Source of the DNA: Eledone cirrhosa
Lineage: Eukaryota
Direction: 5' to 3'
Length of the DNA stretch: 64,000 bases
NCBI GenBank assembly: GCA_964016885.1
Contig: OZ024740.1
Location: forward strand, 223,076,001-223,140,000
Shown: piece after piece, positions 1,775 to 60,920 of the stretch
How positions within the stretch are numbered: position 1 is the stretch's first letter
Layout of the letters: the number at the start of each line of letters is the position of its first letter
Position numbers and translations under genes: made by a program
The notes under the pieces: generated by a model
The model's input: only the letters and a program-made list of their open reading frames with translations
Database searches by the model: none
Told to the model about the DNA's origin: nothing

Positions 1775-3082
1775 CTATAAGAAAGGTTCTTAGAGAAGAA
1801 TAAGGCACTATACTTAGCTTTGGTTGACCTAGAAAAGGCTTTTTATAGCATACCACGATCTGTCATCTGGTGGTCCCTAAGGAAACTAGGTGTAGAGGAA
1901 TGGCTTGTGAGTACAGTGCAGACTATGTACAGGGGTGCTGTCAGTAAAGTGAGGGTAGGAATGGAGTGTAGTGAGGAATTCAAGATACAAGTAGGAGTGC
2001 ATCAGAGTTCGGTCCTCAGCCCGCTCTTGTTCATTATAGTCCTCCAAGCCATAACAGAGGAGTTAAGACTGGCTGACCACGGGAACTTCTCTATGCTGAC
2101 GATCTGATACTTATAACCGAATCAGTAAAGGAGCTAGAGAATAAATTCTGGCTATGGAAACATCAGTTGGAATTAAGAGGACTGAGAGTGAACCTAGCTA
2201 AGACTAGAGAGTTGATAAGTAGAAAAGAGGACAAAACTCTGATTCCATCAGGGAAATGGCCATGTTCGGTATGTAGAAAAGGAGTTGGCATAAATTCTAT
2301 AAAATGTACACAATGCAGATCTTGGGTACACAAGAGATGTAGTTGAATAACAGACAAACTAACAGGTAGGGAAAACTACATATGCAGTAGATGTACAGGG
2401 AAATTTGACAGTAGAAGTCACAGTGATAGACACATTTTTTCAAATCCAGGTAGGATCTATAGAGGTGGTTGATAGCTTCTAATACCTAGGTGATCAGATT
2501 AACAAGGGAGGAGGGTGTTCCAAGATCATAGTATTTAGAATAAGGATGGGTTGGAAGAAGTTGAGGGAGCTGCTTCCTCTGTTGACAAAGAAGTGTTTCT
2601 TCCTATGAATGAAAGGCTGGTTATATGATGCCTGTGTGAGATACATGATGCTGCATGGTAGTGAGACATGGGCAGCAACTGCGGTGGATATGTGACGGCT
2701 GGAGAGAAATGAAGAAAGCATCTCCATTGGATGTGCAATGTCAATGTGCGTGAACGACCAAGCATAGATGAGATGAGAGAGAAATTTTGTATAAGAGAGA
2801 TAGGCTGTAGTGTGCAGGAGAGAAGACTGCATGGGTATGGGCATGTGATACGCATGGAGGATGACCACTGGGTAAAGAAGTACTAAGAAATCCCAATTGA
2901 AGGAAGACGCAGTAGAGGAACACCACAAAAAACATGGGCGGAGGTGGTGACAGCTGAGCTCAGATCGCTGAATCTCACGGAGGAGATGATAAAGGACCAT
3001 GTCGAATGGAGAGATGCTGTGCTGAACAGGACCCATCCCACCCTTGTAAGCAGGGAAAAGCAGACGTAAAATGATGATGATG
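1775..3082 (+). mobile_element. RTE-clade LINE family A, 5'-truncated and decayed (RT + PHD-like finger + C-terminus)
   Basis: ORF 1820-2107 VDLEKAF..VGVHQSSVLSPLLFIIVL; downstream YADD-equivalent and WPCSVCRKG..WVHKRCS; ends CCCTTGTAAGCAGGGAAAAGCAGACGTAAAA(TGA)n. Confidence 0.92.
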
Positions 3083-4782
3083 TATGTATATGTGTGTGTA
3101 TGTATATGTATGTAATGGGCTTTATATGGTTTCCATCTCCCAAATCTAGTTTCAAGGCATAGGTCAGGAACCTAAGGCAGTAAATAGTATACACCGAAAG
3201 TGTCACACAAGACTTGAACCAGAAATTGTGTTGTTTTAGAATGAACGTCTTAACCACACAGCCATTCTGAAGGTGCTTAGAGTAGCAGCCTAGAGCTATC
3301 ATGTTCAAATTCAACTAACATTCTGATACAATCTTTTGATATAATAACAAAGCAAAAGAATGTATAGAATTGCAGCCATGAATATAAATGCCTTCTACAC
3401 ACTTTACCACAATGTGTATAGAATAGTTTAATATTTGCATATATAAATCAAAGCATACATATTATGCACATAACCCATAACAGAAACATTTGATGCATTA
3501 TATTTTTAATATATAGTTACTCTAGGTCATTTCTGATGTTATGGGACATCACTTTTCATCAATATTATCAGGAGAAAATATCTCACAATGTCAAACATGA
3601 ACAACAGTCAAGATATATTTGTAAGACAAAGTGCTAAACACAGATAGGATATGATGGGAGTCAACGTCTTATAGCATTTAATAATAAGTTTCAGAAATGA
3701 GTGAAATATTCAAAACAGCCAAAATATTAGACAGTGTAAATGTTTAATACTAATGTCTTGTTAGTATAATTATTGTCATTATTCATGCATACAGACAATA
3801 ACATACATAAAATAACTGTATGCAAATTAAGCAATATACACACTGAGGTGCATATAGATAGAAACAAACAAACACATCAAACATAGGTAAATGTAAACTG
3901 AGAAATTTAAAATCCCACACATACTCAGAATGTAAGTGAAAGAAAGTTGAGCAGCTTACACACACATAGAAAGTAGATGAACGAAGGTTGAACAATTGAC
4001 ATACAATGTCCACATACATATATAAATACAAGTACACACACACAAACATATATATAATGTAGGTGAATGACTGGAATAGAACAATTTTATACACATACAG
4101 ACAAACATATGTATATATACACCTGCACACTCTGACAAATAAACAAAGGAAATCACAGTAGAAAAACACTTTGAATTATAAAATATAAAAAGATAATTCT
4201 CACTCAAAAGTAACTAAGAAAAGAGTAACGTTTATAATACGTTTCTTGCATAAACACGCATGCATACATTTTGTTTTATATTTGTGATTGCTAGTAAGAA
4301 ACACAATGACAGGAATTAAAAATCATAACTTCAGCTTATTGTGTAAAACAGGCTGCAAATTAGTAGAGGTGTAGGTCAAAATGTACTTATTTTGGCTCTC
4401 TGCACTGTGTCAAATACAACTATGCTCTTAGCTTTATTATTCTTCAGGGTAGATAAAATGAATTAGCAATATAGAACACCCGACCATAAGACTTGAGATA
4501 TTTTTTTAGGCTCTTTTATTTCTGAGTTTCAATAACACTGGCAGAAATTGGGTGATAGAACTAATTTGTTACTCAGCTTAACTCTCCACACTTTTGATTT
4601 AAATCAAACTTCTGGTTTGAGGATACCTAGTTCTTACTCTTTCTCCCTCTTACCAGTCATAAATGCGCTAAAAAGGGCCATTGGCAATGCTCTTCCCTAC
4701 CTGACTAAACAATAAAACTAGAAATTAAATGCAACTCTTTACAATGTAGGAAAAGCATCAATCACATTTTCTATTTATCTAA

Positions 4783-14543: not shown

Positions 14544-15462
14544 ATTGGAAGCAAGAGGACTGAGAGTGAATCTAGCTAAGACAAAAGTGTTGATGAGTAG
14601 AAAAGAGGACAAAACCCTGATTCCGTCAGGGAAATGGCCATGTTCGATATGCAGAAAAGGAACTGGCATAAATTCTATAAAATGCACACAATGCAGATCC
14701 TGGGTACACAAGAGATGTAGCGGGATAGCAGGCAAACTAACAGGTAGGGAAAATATGTATGCAGTAGATGTACAGGGAAATTAGACAGTAGAAGTCACAC
14801 TGATAGACACATTTTTCAAATGCAGGAGGGCGCTATAGAATTGGTGGATAGCTTCTGGTACCTAGGAGATCAGATTAGCATGGGAGGAGGGTGTGCCAAG
14901 GCCATAGTATCTAGAATAAGGACGGGTTGGAAGAAGTTTAGGGAGCTGCTTCCTCTGTTGATGAAGAAGGGTTTCTCCCTGCGTACGAAAGGCTGGTTGT
15001 ATGATGCCTGTGTGAGGAGCGCGATGCTGCATGGTAGTGAGACATGGGCAGCAACTGCAGATGATATGCGATGGCTGGAGAGAAATGAGGCAAGCATGCT
15101 CCATTGGATGTGCAGTATAAATGTGCGTGAACGACCCAGCATAAATGTGTTGAGAGAGAAACTGTGTCTGAGAGGGATAGAATGTAGTGTACGGGAGAGG
15201 AGACTGAGGTGGTATGGACATGTGATGCGCATGGAGGATGACCGATGGGTGAAGAAGTGCCAGGAATTGCCAGTTGAAGGAAGACGTGGTAGAGGTAGAC
15301 CACGAAAAACATGGGCGGAGGTGGTGAGAACAGACCTCAGAGGATTGAAGCTCACGGTGGAGATGACGATGGACCGTGACGAGTGGAGAGATGCAGTGCT
15401 GAATAAGACCCGTCCCACCCTTGCAAGCAGGGAAAAGCGGACGTAAAATGATGATGATGATA
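14544..15462 (+). mobile_element. RTE LINE family A, 5'-truncated, relatively young
   Basis: ORFs 14545-14784 (NLAKTKVL, WPCSICRKG..CTQC..WVHKRCSG) and 14820-15446 (FWYLGD, LHGSETW, RLRWYGHVMRM, GRGRPRKTW); (TA)n at 5' junction; (TGA)n tail. Confidence 0.95.
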
Positions 15463-24500: not shown

Positions 24501-25792
24501 AGTACCTAAGTTTAAGTAATTCAAAGCAAATAAAACCAATATACATTTGAAGGAATGAAGCATCTTTTTCTTTAAAATGCAATGAAGACATATATAAATA
24601 CAATCACATTAAGTGCTATATAATATATTTGTTATTCTGATGTTTTGAAAACTGGTTTCAATTACAATTGGTATTTTGTGCAATGCAATCTATATTTATT
24701 TATTTTATTTCATGCAATTATACTTCAAAGAGCACCAATAACTAAAAAAAGTCCTGGATATGGTGGAATGTTAGAATCTTACATTTATTCTGTAAGAATC
24801 ATCAGTAAAAATTCTATAGTATTAGTATAGTTAATACAAAGCATTGTGAGATATGTAATAGAAGAGCATTAAGTTTCAAAAAGCCAACACGATGAGGCAG
24901 AAATATATAAACGGCAAATTATGACTAATAAAACAGAAACTAATGTTTTACCTAGTATATTTCACCTAGGCCAGTTAAGGAAGAGCACATGAATCGTTTG
25001 TTTCTGTTTTGAACCATTTCTTCTTCACATTTGAAAAAAGGGTATTAGCCCTGAAATATTATGTTGAAATATATTGGGTAAAACATTTTATTTTATTGTC
25101 ATCCTTTGCCTTTTACATATTTCTACTCCATTATACCGGCTTTTTGAAATTTATCAGTCTTTTATTTTATATTATTGTTTTAAAACCTATTACAAATATT
25201 CAGGGTCATCATATGTCTTGAGAGACATGAATTTGCACTGGGAAAGTTATTCACTAAGACACAGGCGTGGGCAGGTTTCATTGTAGAAAACCAGCTGTTA
25301 CCCATGCAAGCAAGTCTCCCCTCTCTATGCTACCAATGGTGTTGATGGGAAAGGCAAGCAAAGACCAATACAACATATCAACAGTGATGTCACAGATAAA
25401 CTGAGAAAGCAAAGAGTAAAAAAAGATACTACAAAGTATTATGTCTGATACATTAACCACACCACCAATCCACCACACTGGACTAGTATTTTATTTTAAC
25501 CAAACTGAAAGTGTGAAACGTAAAGTTTAGCTTATCAAAAGTAAGAAGGCCATGAATTTAACTAACTTTCAGGATCATTTGATAAAACTCTCATATCTAT
25601 TGTTATTAAATAAATCAGTATATATATATATATTATCGCTCTAGATGGCTGAATAAAATAAATGTAATCTGAGTTTTTTTTAATATTAATAATAATATTT
25701 GATTCATTTGCAATTATACAAACACCCTCATTTTTAAAGCCATGTCAGTAGAATGAGCCCCTCATTCTTGCTCTTGTGTTGGCTTGTTAACA

Positions 25793-25838
25793 GAACTGCA
25801 GACACTAATGTTTCTGGGTATTACCCTTCATCATCAGC
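25793..25838 (-). ncRNA. Hammerhead motif, left arm (5' strand of helix I lost at the inversion junction)
   Basis: Minus strand ..TGATGA-A-GGGTA-A-TACCC-A-GAAA-CATTAGT-GTC-TGCAGTTC; GUC triplet. Confidence 0.6.
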
Positions 25839-25934
25839 CTAATTTGCATATTAGCAGATGGCTGATCAGTCAAATCTGCATATTAGCAGATCCACTGATA
25901 AGCTAGATTTGCATATCAGCAAACAGGCTAGTCT

Positions 25935-25984
25935 GAACTGCACTGATGAAGAGTAATACCCAGAAACATTAGTATCTGCAGTTC
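25935..25984 (+). ncRNA. Minimal type I hammerhead motif, right arm
   Basis: GAACTGCA-CTGATGA-AGAGTAATACCCA-GAAA-CATTAGT-ATC-TGCAGTTC; perfect 8-bp helix I, intact core. Confidence 0.75.
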
Positions 25985-26112
25985 TGTTTACATGCCTACA
26001 CAAGAGCAAGAACGAGGGGCTCATTCTACTGACATTGCTTTAAAAATGAGGCTGTTTGCATAATTGCAAATGAATCAAATATAATTTTTAATATTTGAAA
26101 AACTCAGATTAC

Positions 26113-26145
<33 letters not shown>

Positions 26146-30566: not shown

Positions 30567-30760
30567 ATATTTGAAAAAAAGAAAAGAATCACTTTGCTTG
30601 TGGTTGGTATTCTATAATAATTTAATTTCATATATTCTTTTCGATTTTACAACTTTGCTATATACATCTACACACAAAAAATTGTAAAATTATAAAGTTA
30701 AATAATTATAGAATACCAACTACAAGTGAAGTCATTATTTTCCTTTAAAAAAGAAAATAT
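30567..30760. repeat. ~190-bp fold-back made of the terminus of the element at 41562-43410
   Basis: Imperfect inverted arms; AACTACAAGTGAAGTCATT.TTTTCCTTT matches 43372-43405. Confidence 0.7.
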
Positions 30761-30777
30761 ATATATATACATATATA

Positions 30778-31937
30778 TCATCATCATCATCATTTTACGT
30801 CCGCCTTTCCCTGCTTGCAAGGGTGGGACAGGTCCTATTCAGCATCTCTCTACTTGTCGCGGTCCTTCGTCATCTCCTCTGTGAGTTTCAGCGATCTGAG
30901 GTCTGCTCTCACCACCCCCACCCATGTTTTTCATGGTCTACCTCAACTGCGTCTTCCTTCTACTGGGATTTCTTGGTACTTCTTTACTCAGCGGTCATCC
31001 TCCATGCGCATCACATGTCCATACCATCTCAGCCTTCTCTCCTGCACGCCACAACTTATCTCTCTTATACCCAGTTTCTTTCTCAACTCGTCTATGCTTG
31101 GTTGTTCACGCACATTGACATTGCACATCCAACGGAGCATACTTGATTCCTTTCTCTCCAACCATCGCATATCTTCTGCAGTTGCTGCCCATGTCTCACT
31201 ACCATGCAGCATCACGCATCTCACACACGCATCATATAACCGTCCTTTCATACGCAGGCACAAACCCTTCTTTGTCAACAGAGAAAGCAGCTCCCTAAAC
31301 CTCTTCCAACTAGTCCTTATTCCCTGATACTATGGCCTCAGAACAGCCCCCTCCCATGCTAATCTGATCACCTAGGTACCGGAAGCTATCAACCACTTCT
31401 ATAGAACCCACCTGCATTGGAAAAATGTGTATATCACTGCGATTACTACTGTCAACTTTCCATTTACATCTACTGCATACGTAGTTTTCCCTACTTGATA
31501 GTTTGCCTGCTATCCCACTACATCTCTTGTGTTCCCAAGATCTGCATTGCATACATTTTATGGAATTTATGCCAGCTCCTGTCCTACATATCGAACTTGG
31601 TCATTTGCCTGATGGAATCAGAGTATTGTCCTCTCTCTCTTCTACTTATCAACACTTTTGTTTTAGCTATGTTCACTCTCGGGCCTCTTGATTCCAACTG
31701 TTCTTTCCATGGCCAGAATTTATTCTCTAACTCCTCCACTGATTCTGTTATAAGAACCAGATCATCAACATAGAGAAGTTCCCATGGGCATCCAGTCTTA
31801 ACCTCCTCTGTTATGGCTTGGAGGACTATAATGAACAAGAGCGGGCTGAGGACTGAACCCTGATGTACACCTACTTGTATCTGGAATTCCTCACTAATCT
31901 CCATTCCTATTCTCACTTTACTGGCAGTACCCCTGTA
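30778..31937 (-). mobile_element. RTE LINE family A, 5'-truncated
   Basis: ORFs 31584-31985 (GVHQGSVLSPLLF..YVDD), 31310-31552, 30988-31278; (CAT)n tail next to (TA)n. Confidence 0.93.
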
Positions 31938-36887: not shown

Positions 36888-36942
<55 letters not shown>

Positions 36943-36970
36943 GTGGTAACACAACAGTTAGTTCACCATA

Positions 36971-37010
36971 CCGAGAACAATTGTTTCACCTTAGCGGATC
37001 ATCAGCTCGG
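36971..37010 (-). ncRNA. Minimal type I hammerhead ribozyme motif (left pLTR)
   Basis: CCGAG-CTGATGA-TCC-GCTAA-GGT-GAAA-CAATTG-TT-CTCGG; palindromic ACAATTGT helix III, GUU triplet. Confidence 0.8.
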
Positions 37011-37172
37011 AATGGGCATGGTTATAGGAACAGGAAGGACAACCTTACGTACGCGCATGCGCAGAAACCCAGTAACTTCACACAGGCAATACTAGACTGC
37101 GTGCGAGAGATGTAAGCGAGATAACTGCGAAAGTCCGAAAAGTTCTTAGGTTGAAAATAAAATTACAAAAAA

Positions 37173-37714
37173 TCAGTCCGGAGCCTTGTAGTTATGCAAT
37201 AGGTGTTTGCCGACGTGTAGACAACGTGTGAAAAATTCATTTCTCGTGTTTAGGCAATCACTATTACGTAATCTCTTTAGAATAGTTATTCGTTCGTCAA
37301 TACATAAGCCACACGTCGTATTTTCCCTTGCGTATGGCTTGGACTTAGTGATGGCTTTCCATTGAATGGAGTAGTGTATACTTGAGTCCTTGAGGGACCA
37401 TACGTGGCTCACGAGTTTCGTGGATGAACGTCTGTCCGGGTACCTGAAGGTAGACGGGTGGTTCAGGAAACGTTCCTTAAATCGGCCCTCCGCCATGCCC
37501 ACATAGGATTTGACCTTCTGTGGTTCGTTTGGTCGGTTGGAAGTGACCACAGCTTCAGAAATTACAGCTGGTGTGTTGCATTGCTTTTGAAGGGGGCAAG
37601 CTTCAGGCTTACGGCACGAGCACCCTGGTGGGGTGTTGCTCCTAGGGCTGCTGGTGATGTTGGCCTTCATGTTCTTAGCGCATGAGTATCCTAGTTTATC
37701 TTTGTGTAGGTTAA
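37173..37714 (-). pseudogene. Penelope-like linker + GIY-YIG endonuclease C-terminus (left arm)
   Basis: KLGYSCAKNMK..CSCRKPEACPL..C..VISEAVV..SYVGMAEGRFKERFLNH..STKL..VWSLK..CGLCIDE..LNTRNEF..RCLH; the N-terminal part of ORF 37173-37907 is just antisense of the right arm. Confidence 0.85.
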
Positions 37715-38162
37715 CCACCAGGGTGCTCTTGCCGTAAGCCCCCTTCAACAGCAATGTAACACACCAGCTGTAATTTATGAAGCTGTGGTTACTTCCAACC
37801 GACCAAACGAACCACAGGATGTCAAATCCCATGTGGGCATGGCGGAGGGCCGATTTAAGGAACGTTTCTTGAACCACCAGTCTACCTTCAGGTACCCGGA
37901 CAGACATTCATCCACGAAACTCGCGAGCCACGTATGGTCCCTCAAGGACTCAAGTATAGACTACTCCATTCAATGGAAAGCCATCACTAAGTCCAAGCCA
38001 TACGCAAGGGGAAATCCGACGTGTGGCTTATGTATTGACGAACGAATAACTATTCTAAAGAGATTACGCAATAGTGATTGCCTAAACACGAGAATTGAAT
38101 TTTTCACACGTTGTCCACACATCGCCAAACACCTATTGCATAACTACAAGGCTCCGGACTGA
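37715..38162 (+). pseudogene. Penelope-like GIY-YIG endonuclease C-terminus (right arm)
   Basis: VIYEAVV..SHVGMAEGRFKERFLNHQSTF..CGLCIDE..RCPH; 11-bp deletion near 37740 relative to the left arm. Confidence 0.85.
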
Positions 38163-38311
38163 TTCTTTGTAATTTTATTTTCAACCTAAGAACTTTTCGG
38201 ACTTTCGCAGTTATCTCCCTTACACTTCTCGCACGCAGTCTAGTATTACCTGCGTGAATTGACCGGGTTTCTGCGCATGCGCGTTCTTACGGTTGTTCTT
38301 CCTGTTCCATT

Positions 38312-38351
38312 CCGAGCTGAGGATCCGCTAAGGTGAAACAATTGTTCTCGG
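38312..38351 (+). ncRNA. Minimal type I hammerhead ribozyme motif (right pLTR)
   Basis: CCGAG-CTGAGGA-TCC-GCTAA-GGT-GAAA-CAATTG-TT-CTCGG; helix I extends to CCATTCCGAG/CTCGGTATGG. Confidence 0.8.
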
Positions 38352-38484
38352 TATGGTGAACTAACTGTTGTGTAACCACTTCTACCTAACTCGTCCCATG
38401 GACTGAGTGCTCTACCACTACGGATATTACTTCCAGTGTTCCACCACTATATATATATATATATATCAGTAGAGAGAGAGATTT

Positions 38485-58307: not shown

Positions 58308-60920
58308 TATGGAAGCTAAAGGACCCCACAGCCAGAAATAAATTTCAAAGCATATTACTTGATGCTTTCGACAGTAAGGAAGAGCATTTAGAGTCGTACA
58401 ATATAGAGGAACAGTGGGAATTCCTGAAATCAAACCTGCTGATGACGGCAGACGAAGTCTGTGGCCGGAGCAGGCCTATAGGCAGGAGGAGAGTAACATG
58501 GTGGTGGAACAGTAAGGTGGAGGAGTCGATTAAGGCCAAAAAGCAGGCTTGGAAAGTATGGCGGGATGGGGGAAGTAGAGAAGACTATCAAGTGGCCAGG
58601 AGGGAAGCTAGGAGACAAGTGTACTTCGCAAGAAGGGAAGCAGAGGAAAGAAAGTTCAAGCATGTTCTACAACGCGAGGAGCAAAAACGTGAGGTGTTCA
58701 GGATTGCTAGGCAATGTGTCAAGGAAAACCGTGATATTGTCGGGGAGAAGTGTGTACTAAATGATGATGGCGTACTTGCCATCACTGACGCTGATAAGAA
58801 GGTAGCTTGGAAGTGTCACTACGAAAGGCTACTAAATGAGTAGAATAAATGAGAGAAGGATAGTCTGCCCCAAATCGATCCAATAGAGGGAGTGTTAGTT
58901 GAAGGTAGTATAATGAGTAAGGCAATCAAAGATGTGAAGACGGGTAAGGCGGCTGGGCCTTCGGAAATAGTTGCTGAGATGCTGAAAGCCTCTGGAACGG
59001 TGGGACACACCATGGTCACCTGGATAGTAAACCAAGTCATACAGAATGGGGTTGTTCTGAAGGACTGGCATAGCAGCATCATCATTAACTGTTACAAGGG
59101 TAAAGGAGACGCCCTAGATAGGAGTAACTATAGAGGCATTAAATTAATCGACCAGGTCATGAAGGTCACGGAAAAAGTAATAGTGCAACTAATCAGAGAG
59201 AGAATTGATCTAGATGAAATGCAGTTCGGGTTTGTGTCAGGCAAAAGTGCCACAGACGCTCTTTTCATTGTACGACAACTACAGGAGAAGTACCTAGCTA
59301 AAAGTAAACCCCTATACTTAGCTTTTGTCGACTTGGAGAAAGCCTTCGACAGAGTTCCCCGTTCCATTATCTGGTGGGCTCTTAGAAAACTAGGTGTTGA
59401 TGAATGGCTTGTGAGAGCTATACGAGCCATGTATAAAGAAACAGTCAGCAAGGTTAGAATTAACAACGAATATAGTGAAGAGTTTAGCGTAAAAGTTGGT
59501 GTTCATCAGGGCTCTGTTCTTAGCCCCCTACTATTTATTATTGCCCTACAGGCTATAACAGTGGAGTTCAAAACAGGCTGCCCATGGGAACTCCGATACG
59601 CAGATGATCTAACGCTCATAGCTGAATCGATGGCTGAACTAGAGAAGAAATTCCAAACATGGAAGCATGGCCTAGAATCAAAAGACCTTAAAATTAACCT
59701 GGCTAAGACTAAAGTTCTAGTTTGTAGGAAAGAAAATAAGGCGCCGGTCCCTTCCGGGAAATGGCCATGCTCAGTGTGTAGGAAAGGCGTAGGTAGAAAC
59801 TCCATTTTATATCCCAAATGCAAAGTATGGGTGCATAAAAGATGTAGTGGGATCACAGGTAAGCTAACTAAGAACATTGATTTTACATGTGGCCGGTTCT
59901 CTGGTGCAATAAGTAGCAGCAAGTGCCCACAAAATACTAGCTCTTTCAATTGCGCAGAGGGTTCTATAGAAATAGTGGACAGCTTCCGTTACCTGGGTGA
60001 CAAAATCAGCAGTGGGGGAGAGTGCTCTGAAAGTACAGTAGCTAGACTCAGAACTGGATGGAAAAAGTTCAGAGAGCTTATACCACTATTAGCCGCTAAA
60101 GGGTTCTCCCTAAAAATGAAAGGCAGGCTGTATGATGCCTGCATACGAACAGCAATGTTGCATGGCAGTGAGACCTGGGCATTGTGTGCAGAGGATATAC
60201 CCAGACTAGAGAGGAACGAAGCTTGCATGCTCCGCTGGATGTGTAATAGTAATATACGCGAATGGCAAAACATAAACGAACTAAGGGAAAAATTAGAAAT
60301 AAGAGGGATCAGATGTTGTTTAGTCGAGAGAAGACTACGTTGATGCGCATGAAAGACGACAGCTGTATAAAAAAGTGCAGGGCAATAAAGATAGACGGTA
60401 GCCACAGAGTAGGCAGACCCAGAAAAATCTGGGACGACCTGATAAATTCCGACCTCACACACACTTACACCTCTCCAAGACAATGTCACTGGACCGAGAT
60501 CTTTGGCGGTACTCAGTAATAGAGAAGACCCGCCTTACCTGAATACAAAGTAAAACCTACTACAGTCAGTAGGCATCTCTAACAAAACACTCCCAGTCCC
60601 ACCACCCCCACCACACCTCCCCTTTCAATGTAAAGTTACGTTGGTGCCACAACATCCAGGCCAAAACAAATGAGATCGTGTAGGTGTCACGACAAAAAAA
60701 CACACAGTCCACGCTGTAATGTGGCCGTGTAGGCAACATGGTAAAAACCTCCCAGTCCCACACTGTAAATGTGGTTGGTGTTAGGAAGGGCATCCAGCTG
60801 TAGAAAACCCACCAGACAGTCCTATACGAGCAAGACAACCACTCTTACCTCAAGTGGGAAAACTCCCGTCCAAACCCATGCAAGCGTGGAACATGGACGT
60901 TAAACGATGATGATGATGAT
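58308..60920 (+). mobile_element. RTE LINE family B, longest copy (no APE endonuclease; 5'-truncated)
   Basis: One reading frame from ~58310 to 60343 with in-frame stops at 58841 and 58850; 3' UTR ends CCATGCAAGCGTGG..(GAT)n; ATATATAAAT on both flanks (possible TSD). Confidence 0.96.
58892..60343 (+). CDS. RTE reverse transcriptase with inserted PHD-like finger (disrupted copy)
   Basis: NYRGIKL, QFGF, FVDLEKAFDRV, GVHQGSVLSPLLF, YADD, NLAKTK, FRYLG, LHGSETW. Confidence 0.92.
   Translation: MLVEGSIMSKAIKDVKTGKAAGPSEIVAEMLKASGTVGHTMVTWIVNQVIQNGVVLKDWHSSIIINCYKGKGDALDRSNYRGIKLIDQVMKVTEKVIVQLIRERIDLDEMQFGFVSGKSATDALFIVRQLQEKYLAKSKPLYLAFVDLEKAFDRVPRSIIWWALRKLGVDEWLVRAIRAMYKETVSKVRINNEYSEEFSVKVGVHQGSVLSPLLFIIALQAITVEFKTGCPWELRYADDLTLIAESMAELEKKFQTWKHGLESKDLKINLAKTKVLVCRKENKAPVPSGKWPCSVCRKGVGRNSILYPKCKVWVHKRCSGITGKLTKNIDFTCGRFSGAISSSKCPQNTSSFNCAEGSIEIVDSFRYLGDKISSGGECSESTVARLRTGWKKFRELIPLLAAKGFSLKMKGRLYDACIRTAMLHGSETWALCAEDIPRLERNEACMLRWMCNSNIREWQNINELREKLEIRGIRCCLVERRLR

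Follow-up and report, generated by a model that had tools for sequence, protein, structure and literature searches.

Animal non-LTR retrozymes have been described by Cervera and de la Pena 2020 (PMC7229834) and by Li, Clavereau and Pollet 2026 (10.64898/2026.07.22.740005). In the available text of these papers, the monomer is non-coding, AT-rich and a few hundred nucleotides long, and each unit contains one type I hammerhead. The monomers form head-to-tail repeats, are present in thousands of copies, and are predicted to fold into a highly self-paired circle. Both the transcription of animal retrozymes and the enzyme that copies them are treated there as proposals, not as demonstrations.

EN+ Penelope-like elements (PLEs), in which an inverted pLTR carries a tail, form partial tandems, 5′-truncated copies and inverted 5′-truncated copies (PMC8557442, PMC3846280, PMC11167929). 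They also have a tail at one end only, insert into microsatellites, and can carry a hammerhead with a short self-complementary helix III, as described together with dimer-dependent animal hammerheads in PMC4209133. For an anole PLE, it has been observed in vitro that reverse transcription begins at two adjacent internal sites and that both nicked strands are extended (PMC11167929). A further related system, cited in PMC2220036, is newt satellite 2, whose hammerhead repeats are arranged in tandem and contain an internal Pol II promoter of snRNA type.

Here, we describe a hairpin in a 64-kb stretch of Eledone cirrhosa DNA, which is termed the window. We read it as one inverted insertion of a high-copy, 441-nt, non-coding hammerhead repeat, likely a PLE-copied retrozyme that sits in a TA microsatellite and is likely inactive (probability about 0.85). 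A first-pass annotation had described the hairpin as two hammerheads around three octamer-like repeats, with no open reading frame (ORF), and had proposed it as a minimal non-autonomous unit. The inverted repeat is real: its 159-nt arms (25675–25833 and 25944–26102) are 92% complementary and lie 110 nt apart, and the hairpin reaches 25658 and 26118. It occurs once in the window, between two (TA)n runs, and has the following parts.

25620 to 25633, no strand: left (TA)n target flank.
25634 to 25934, minus strand: left arm, a 5′-truncated monomer copy that runs from about family position 220 to 157 and ends at the long, tailed 3′ end.
25634 to 25657, minus strand: tail extension of PLE type, on the left arm only (family positions 134–157).
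25793 to 25833, minus strand: left hammerhead remnant with helix II, GAAA, helix III, the GUC site and the 3′ helix I strand.
25833 to 25834, minus strand: 77-nt deletion, with family positions 322–398 missing between short CTGA repeats.
25835 to 25934, minus strand: three 33-bp quasi-palindromic repeat units, at 25842, 25874 and 25907.
25931 to 25935, no strand: head-to-head inversion junction of both arms.
25935 to 25984, plus strand: right type I hammerhead motif; relative to the family, helix II (25952) and helix III (25974) each have one G>A change.
25935 to 26118, plus strand: right arm, a monomer copy that runs from family position 389 to 133 and ends at the short, tail-less 3′ end.
26119 to 26144, no strand: right (TA)n target flank.

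All three repeat units are present, and two of them carry ATTTGCAT; the octamer ATGCAAAT is found on the minus strand in units 25842 and 25907, with a one-mismatch variant in unit 25874. The ~110-bp spacer that holds them belongs to the left, minus-strand copy and is not an inter-arm loop. The longest ATG ORFs are of 32 aa (plus strand) and 52 aa (minus strand), in agreement with the non-coding description. There are, however, no two working hammerheads around the repeats, since the motifs are on opposite strands, pointing away from each other, and both are damaged. The left remnant, with a predicted cut between 25801 and 25800, has lost its 5′ helix I strand to the 77-nt deletion, which also removed the PSE-like core, the TATA-like stretch and the predicted start (see below). 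The right motif has AUC instead of GUC; A 25974 disrupts pair 15.2–16.2, and A 25952 disrupts helix II. The hammerhead that had been assembled on paper from both arms does correspond to real family copies, which match it at 94–96% over the hammerhead in L011, L017 and L009.

The window copy contains the inverted arrangement only, with no consecutive head-to-tail hammerheads. The hairpin is very stable, and imposing helix I on the computed fold of its plus strand carries a cost of 46 kcal/mol. Together with the deletion and the changes at 25952 and 25974, this cost means that the locus would not use the family's hammerhead, and the window copy is likely an inactive, decayed inverted product. 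An Rfam search of the whole window gave zero matches at gathering score. Three sequencing runs (one sample of one study, maybe the window's own source) cover the unique flanks of the hairpin evenly and behave as DNA; no empty-site joint was found among the matches listed.

The sequence is decisively not single-copy. A search of the whole 3.0-Gb genome with the hairpin gave at least 160 matches, with 40 of 4,345 candidates scored. The exact 34-nt hammerhead core has 1,305 matches in the genome, while its reversed control has none, so neither the hairpin nor its hammerhead is due to chance. When helix II is left free, the core has 2,518 matches, again with none for the reversed control. From 96 listed matches that differ at one further site, we estimate a divergence of ~4% per site and roughly 6,000 hammerheads genome-wide.

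Iterated alignment of 108 segments gave a monomer of 441 nt, to which the copies at 244 loci are identical at 91% of positions on average. The order of its parts is constant at the 72 mapped loci, which include head-to-tail repeats; 21 cut-to-cut monomers were found among 102 loci, and arrays are short, the longest contiguous stretch being 838 nt. The monomer is non-coding, with GC below 50% and no ATG ORF longer than 93 aa when doubled, and no LTR was seen in the locus maps. As a circle it folds with a z of −10.9, and the antisense fold is equally stable (z −10.8). Three of the 33-bp units are present in 107 of 146 full spacers (range 2–9, with none scored in one spacer). There are at least three subfamilies, one of which has a helix II tetraloop and no T run. 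This tetraloop variant, examined in the search for a partner, is another subfamily of the same monomer in 11 of 12 loci. The T run at the long end was rejected as a Pol III terminator: it does not end tandem copies, which continue beyond it, and it is missing from the tetraloop subfamily. As a separate observation, a SINE-like repeat of ~190 nt has inserted repeatedly, in many copies, into the AT-rich palindrome of the retrozyme tail (family positions 99–116).

The proposal of a minimal non-autonomous unit thus held in part. The family is a high-copy, non-coding, non-autonomous hammerhead element; the hairpin is not its minimal unit, since the unit is the 441-nt head-to-tail monomer, of which the window holds a truncated, inverted and deleted copy. 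In composition, size, single type I hammerhead, head-to-tail repetition, copy number and self-paired predicted circle, the family resembles the animal non-LTR retrozymes. In contrast to those described, its monomer is of 441 nt, its arrays stay below two full units in our sample, and it is known here from DNA alone. Moreover, most of its insertions are inverted, follow the long/short end rule of PLEs and target (TA)n, and no pLTR homologue was found for it in the sampled loci. The word "inverted" does not occur in the available text of PMC7229834. Among the papers listed in a literature search, none describes this family or chimeras of a retrozyme with a PLE; bioRxiv supplements and Repbase may contain the family. 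We suggest that the family belongs, as a new member, to the animal non-LTR retrozymes and bears the insertion footprint of PLEs, its cleavage, circles and promoter being predicted.

In the family motif, a type I hammerhead, helix I has 8 bp and helix III has 3 bp; helix II has 4 bp and is closed by an A·A pair, which is atypical. No hammerhead family was reported by Rfam for a tandem family copy, even at E ≤ 5. The isolated hammerhead is predicted to favour an inactive fold (−16.4 vs −10.2 kcal/mol), and two copies of the helix III strand are predicted to pair with each other along their full length (−8.8 kcal/mol). Both properties are in line with the dimer-dependent animal hammerheads of PMC4209133. 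Formal covariation is weak (RNAalifold term +0.65 on 20 monomers, with any double change in 4 of 87 pairs), as is expected for neutrally decaying copies. At the subfamily level, five one-sided stem sites and one two-sided pair (G-C 103, A-U 238) have changed without loss of pairing; the sole pair-breaking site (135) falls at the short end, at which the alignments enter target sequence. A two-sided change in helix I is found in four copies. The A·A pair, the inactive fold of the isolated motif and the weak covariation count against the retrozyme reading, as do the short arrays and the equally stable antisense fold.

The 5′ ends of genomic copies bear on cleavage. Among 351 arms, 12 begin at positions 429–432, next to the cut predicted after 431, compared to 2.3 expected (p = 7e-6); half of these come from the 29 loci of one search, and without them the count is 6 vs 1.7 (p = 0.008). 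Throughout the body of the hammerhead, too, the 5′-end hazard is raised roughly twofold (22 vs 10.3), and a second peak lies at positions 5–8, so stalling at a stem could contribute to the pile-up at the cut site. Of the 123 arms that reach position 433, the majority continue upstream, which means that most templates were uncut or ligated. On the strength of this pile-up, the 5′ ends of family copies may record some in vivo cleavage at GUC.

The way in which copies are inserted was assessed at 244 loci after duplicate loci and pieces shorter than 40 nt had been omitted; the 5′-end analysis further omits 27 tail-pattern loci and two duplicates. In this set, 141 loci are inverted, 98 are in a single orientation and 5 are mixed. 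The 3′ ends fall into two classes, short (family positions 124–139) and long (150–183). Setting aside 45 of the 141 inverted loci, which have an unclassed end, 96 remain, and these comprise 87 long+short, 8 long+long and 1 short+short combinations (p = 1e-17 vs independent ends). The window copy follows the same rule, with a tail on its left arm only. In the first 102 loci, 112 of 138 classed ends adjoin TA-type repeats, and most junction overlaps are of 0–5 nt. The arms are 5′-truncated at scattered points, and junction position and arm length vary between loci.

It is highly improbable that the hairpin itself is a functional minimal unit in which two hammerheads flank a promoter spacer and excise or process a small RNA. 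Inverted forms are in the majority and the hairpin is very stable, but hammerheads on opposite strands leave only one in any transcript, both window hammerheads are damaged, and the variation in junctions and arm lengths means that there is no fixed hairpin unit, which largely refutes this explanation. Long inverted arms flanked by TA repeats would also fit a MITE-like DNA transposon whose terminal inverted repeats are long and whose target is (TA)n. We give it equally little credence, given the scattered 5′ truncation of the arms, the asymmetry of the ends, the 98 loci in a single orientation and the existence of head-to-tail tandems. The same architecture has been reported for PLEs (PMC8557442, PMC3846280). 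The long+short asymmetry is their published footprint, and the window copy was likely pasted into its TA microsatellite by a Penelope-type element.

An ORF-bearing PLE is present in the window itself, as an inverted insertion at 36939–38383 in (TA)n/(GA)n with the same architecture as the hairpin: a short end on one arm and a tail of ~66 nt on the other. It comprises the GIY-YIG 3′ part and its own hammerhead with a self-complementary helix III. Its translation contains a C-terminal GIY-YIG, a CCHH and a cysteine linker, and by these motifs and the definitions in the available text of PMC8557442, an assignment made without a tree, it appears to be of Neptune/Nematis type. Pfam did not recognise its endonuclease fragment. 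At least 150 close copies exist, at 90–96% amino acid identity, and the 441-nt monomer has no real sequence similarity to it.

Several other elements lie in the window. An older inverted repeat at 24836–25180 belongs to another family (2,223 candidates, ~80% identity) that shares the two-end/tail architecture and has a comparable motif at its short end; a simple core scan, which does not cover permuted forms, found no canonical hammerhead in it. In addition, RT-bearing LINE fragments, matched by Pfam RVT_1 and weakly by a PHD finger, are present together with a number of SINE copies (58853–60343; 1928–3107, 14545–15459 and 30757–31937).

The architecture that the hairpin has in common with the ORF-bearing PLE, and the published derivation of retrozymes from pLTRs (10.64898/2026.07.22.740005), raise the question of whether the family is merely the pLTR remnant of an autonomous PLE with an unsampled ORF, and not an independent non-coding monomer family. 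We consider this improbable. In every copy long enough to tell, the hammerhead is preceded by the previous monomer and not by an ORF, and a tblastn search with the RT-EN of the window PLE found no PLE ORF running into the hammerhead at any of 140 loci, the rearranged L245 aside. A search for the tail pattern with altered upstream letters gave 27 matches and no ORF-bearing relative; 11 belong to one segmental duplication and the rest are truncated or rearranged copies. Among these 140 and 27 loci, there was no pLTR of an autonomous partner that shares the monomer's hammerhead or tail, and among the 96 matches listed, no other family combines the same helix III with a different helix II. Unlike EN+ PLEs, the family has no RT or GIY-YIG ORF, either in its sampled loci or in the window copy.

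Eleven loci (L280–L289 and L291, on contigs C16, C19, C20 and C27) are 99%-identical copies of a segment of at least 3 kb that contains a retrozyme copy. The segment also holds a second perfect hairpin of ~110 nt with a hammerhead-like core in its loop (L281:493–602), and may be a young segmental duplication or a larger mobile unit.

The reading of an independent monomer family that is inserted by a PLE is supported by three direct chimeras, in which a retrozyme arm meets the 3′ end of a Neptune/Nematis-type PLE with an overlap of 1–4 nt and no microsatellite between. In L037 the two are head to head and the PLE is 76% identical to the reference; in L275 they are in tandem (92%); and in L319 the long end of the PLE is combined with the short end of the retrozyme (81%). 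Two of these chimeras combine long+long ends and so depart from the usual end rule. Three chimeras in 244 loci is not a frequency, since L275 and L319 came from targeted searches; L245, L059 and L099 were left out of the count. Nested insertion followed by deletion may be an alternative origin. The chimeras point to a PLE partner that would act without shared sequence. In the available text of PMC3846280, the PLE types studied are not reported to cross-mobilise one another; the chimeras here, in contrast, join sequence-unrelated RNAs.

A promoter role for the octamers had been suggested as speculation. This idea finds partial support at the family level, while the window copy has lost the PSE-like core and the predicted start. 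The comparison was made with this genome's own snRNA genes (U1, U2, U5 and U6). All three U6 promoters with a distal element have an octamer, exact or with one mismatch, at −76 to −78, with TATA 46–48 nt further on; 14 further U6 matches, none with promoter boxes in place, were excluded. An ATCAGT-type core box near −57 is present in all 15 U1/U2/U5 promoters used. In the 441-nt monomer, octamers at 240 and 306 and an ATCAGT-like box at 322 lie on the hammerhead strand, and both registers (octamer and box) predict a start at ~377–383, directly before helix I. The PSE-like box scores 14.7, on the sense strand only, a value reached by 2 of 826 genomic background tiles in a test devised after the likeness had been noticed, and the result survives the omission of each snRNA family. 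With all three boxes in the model the result is less distinct (15 of 142 window tiles), since the monomer lacks the −90 box and the distal element and has a weak TATA. The AATTAAAT-type box at about −90 scores −8.7 in the monomer, compared to −0.3 to 12.8 in held-out promoters, and no distal TTACCTCCCTT-type element (~−260) was found at the upstream position. The octamer at 306 is followed 45 nt further by a weak TATA-like stretch, and the remaining U6 box differs.

In the snRNA promoters themselves (upstream regions of L113–L178), the distal TTACCTCCCTT-type element near −260 is common to U1, U2 and U6. The U1/U2/U5 boxes are AATTAAAT (−90), ATCAGT (−57) and a TATA-like box (−31), and the U6 octamer is at −77 rather than distal. 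The ~190-nt SINE-like repeat mentioned above also sits between TATA and start in some U6 genes (L119, L124).

These observations can be read in two ways. The 33-bp repeats may be kept only for RNA structure, as a rod-like hairpin, with an incidental likeness to octamer and PSE, and we place this slightly above an even chance. As quasi-palindromes, the repeats are predicted to fold into a long stem, their number varies from 2 to 9, and two of the expected boxes are absent with a weak TATA score. Against this stand the score of the PSE-like core with its robustness to leaving out families, and the coincidence of the predicted start with a slight enrichment of 5′ ends at 373–380 (19 vs 9.7, p = 0.006, in an interval drawn after the data were seen); some junctions in this interval are formed at the inverted repeat of the element itself. 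That the family monomer carries a real promoter is a prediction which we rate at somewhat below even odds. The promoter of newt satellite 2 uses octamer and PSE boxes. The family resembles it as a tandem hammerhead repeat with a candidate snRNA-type promoter in the monomer, and differs in that it belongs to another phylum, has another sequence, and has a promoter that is a partial sequence match only.

Taken as a retrozyme copied by a PLE, the family may have the following life cycle. Source tandem copies would be transcribed, possibly from an internal snRNA-type promoter that starts just upstream of helix I. Some transcripts would be cut at GUC, probably as hammerhead dimers held by the self-complementary helix III strand, and most templates would remain multimeric or circular, as the 5′-end pile-up suggests. 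From the ends and flanks, a PLE RT-endonuclease would nick both (TA)n strands, and two cDNAs would begin at two fixed internal sites ~25–40 nt apart. The two 5′-truncated arms would then join head to head by short overlaps, giving the one tailed and one tail-less end that are seen in the DNA structure. The window copy later lost 77 nt and gained point changes, both of which are directly visible, and in any transcript that spans it the hammerhead would be buried within a long hairpin.

In its most extended form, this model holds that the retrozyme captured a host snRNA promoter core, convergently with newt satellite 2, that it starts its RNA just upstream of the hammerhead, and that it is copied in trans by a sequence-unrelated Neptune/Nematis-type Penelope enzyme. 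The chimeras would name the partner, and genomic 5′ ends would preserve traces of the start site as well as of ribozyme cuts made in vivo. As a whole, this combination is doubtful.

The window copy is an ordinary decayed product, and the interest of the finding lies at the level of the family. Its strict long/short end rule would map two RT start sites on a protein-free RNA, and its chimeras would name a candidate PLE partner. The candidate snRNA-type promoter, with its predicted start, may provide a third handle on retrozyme biology that can be obtained from the genome only.
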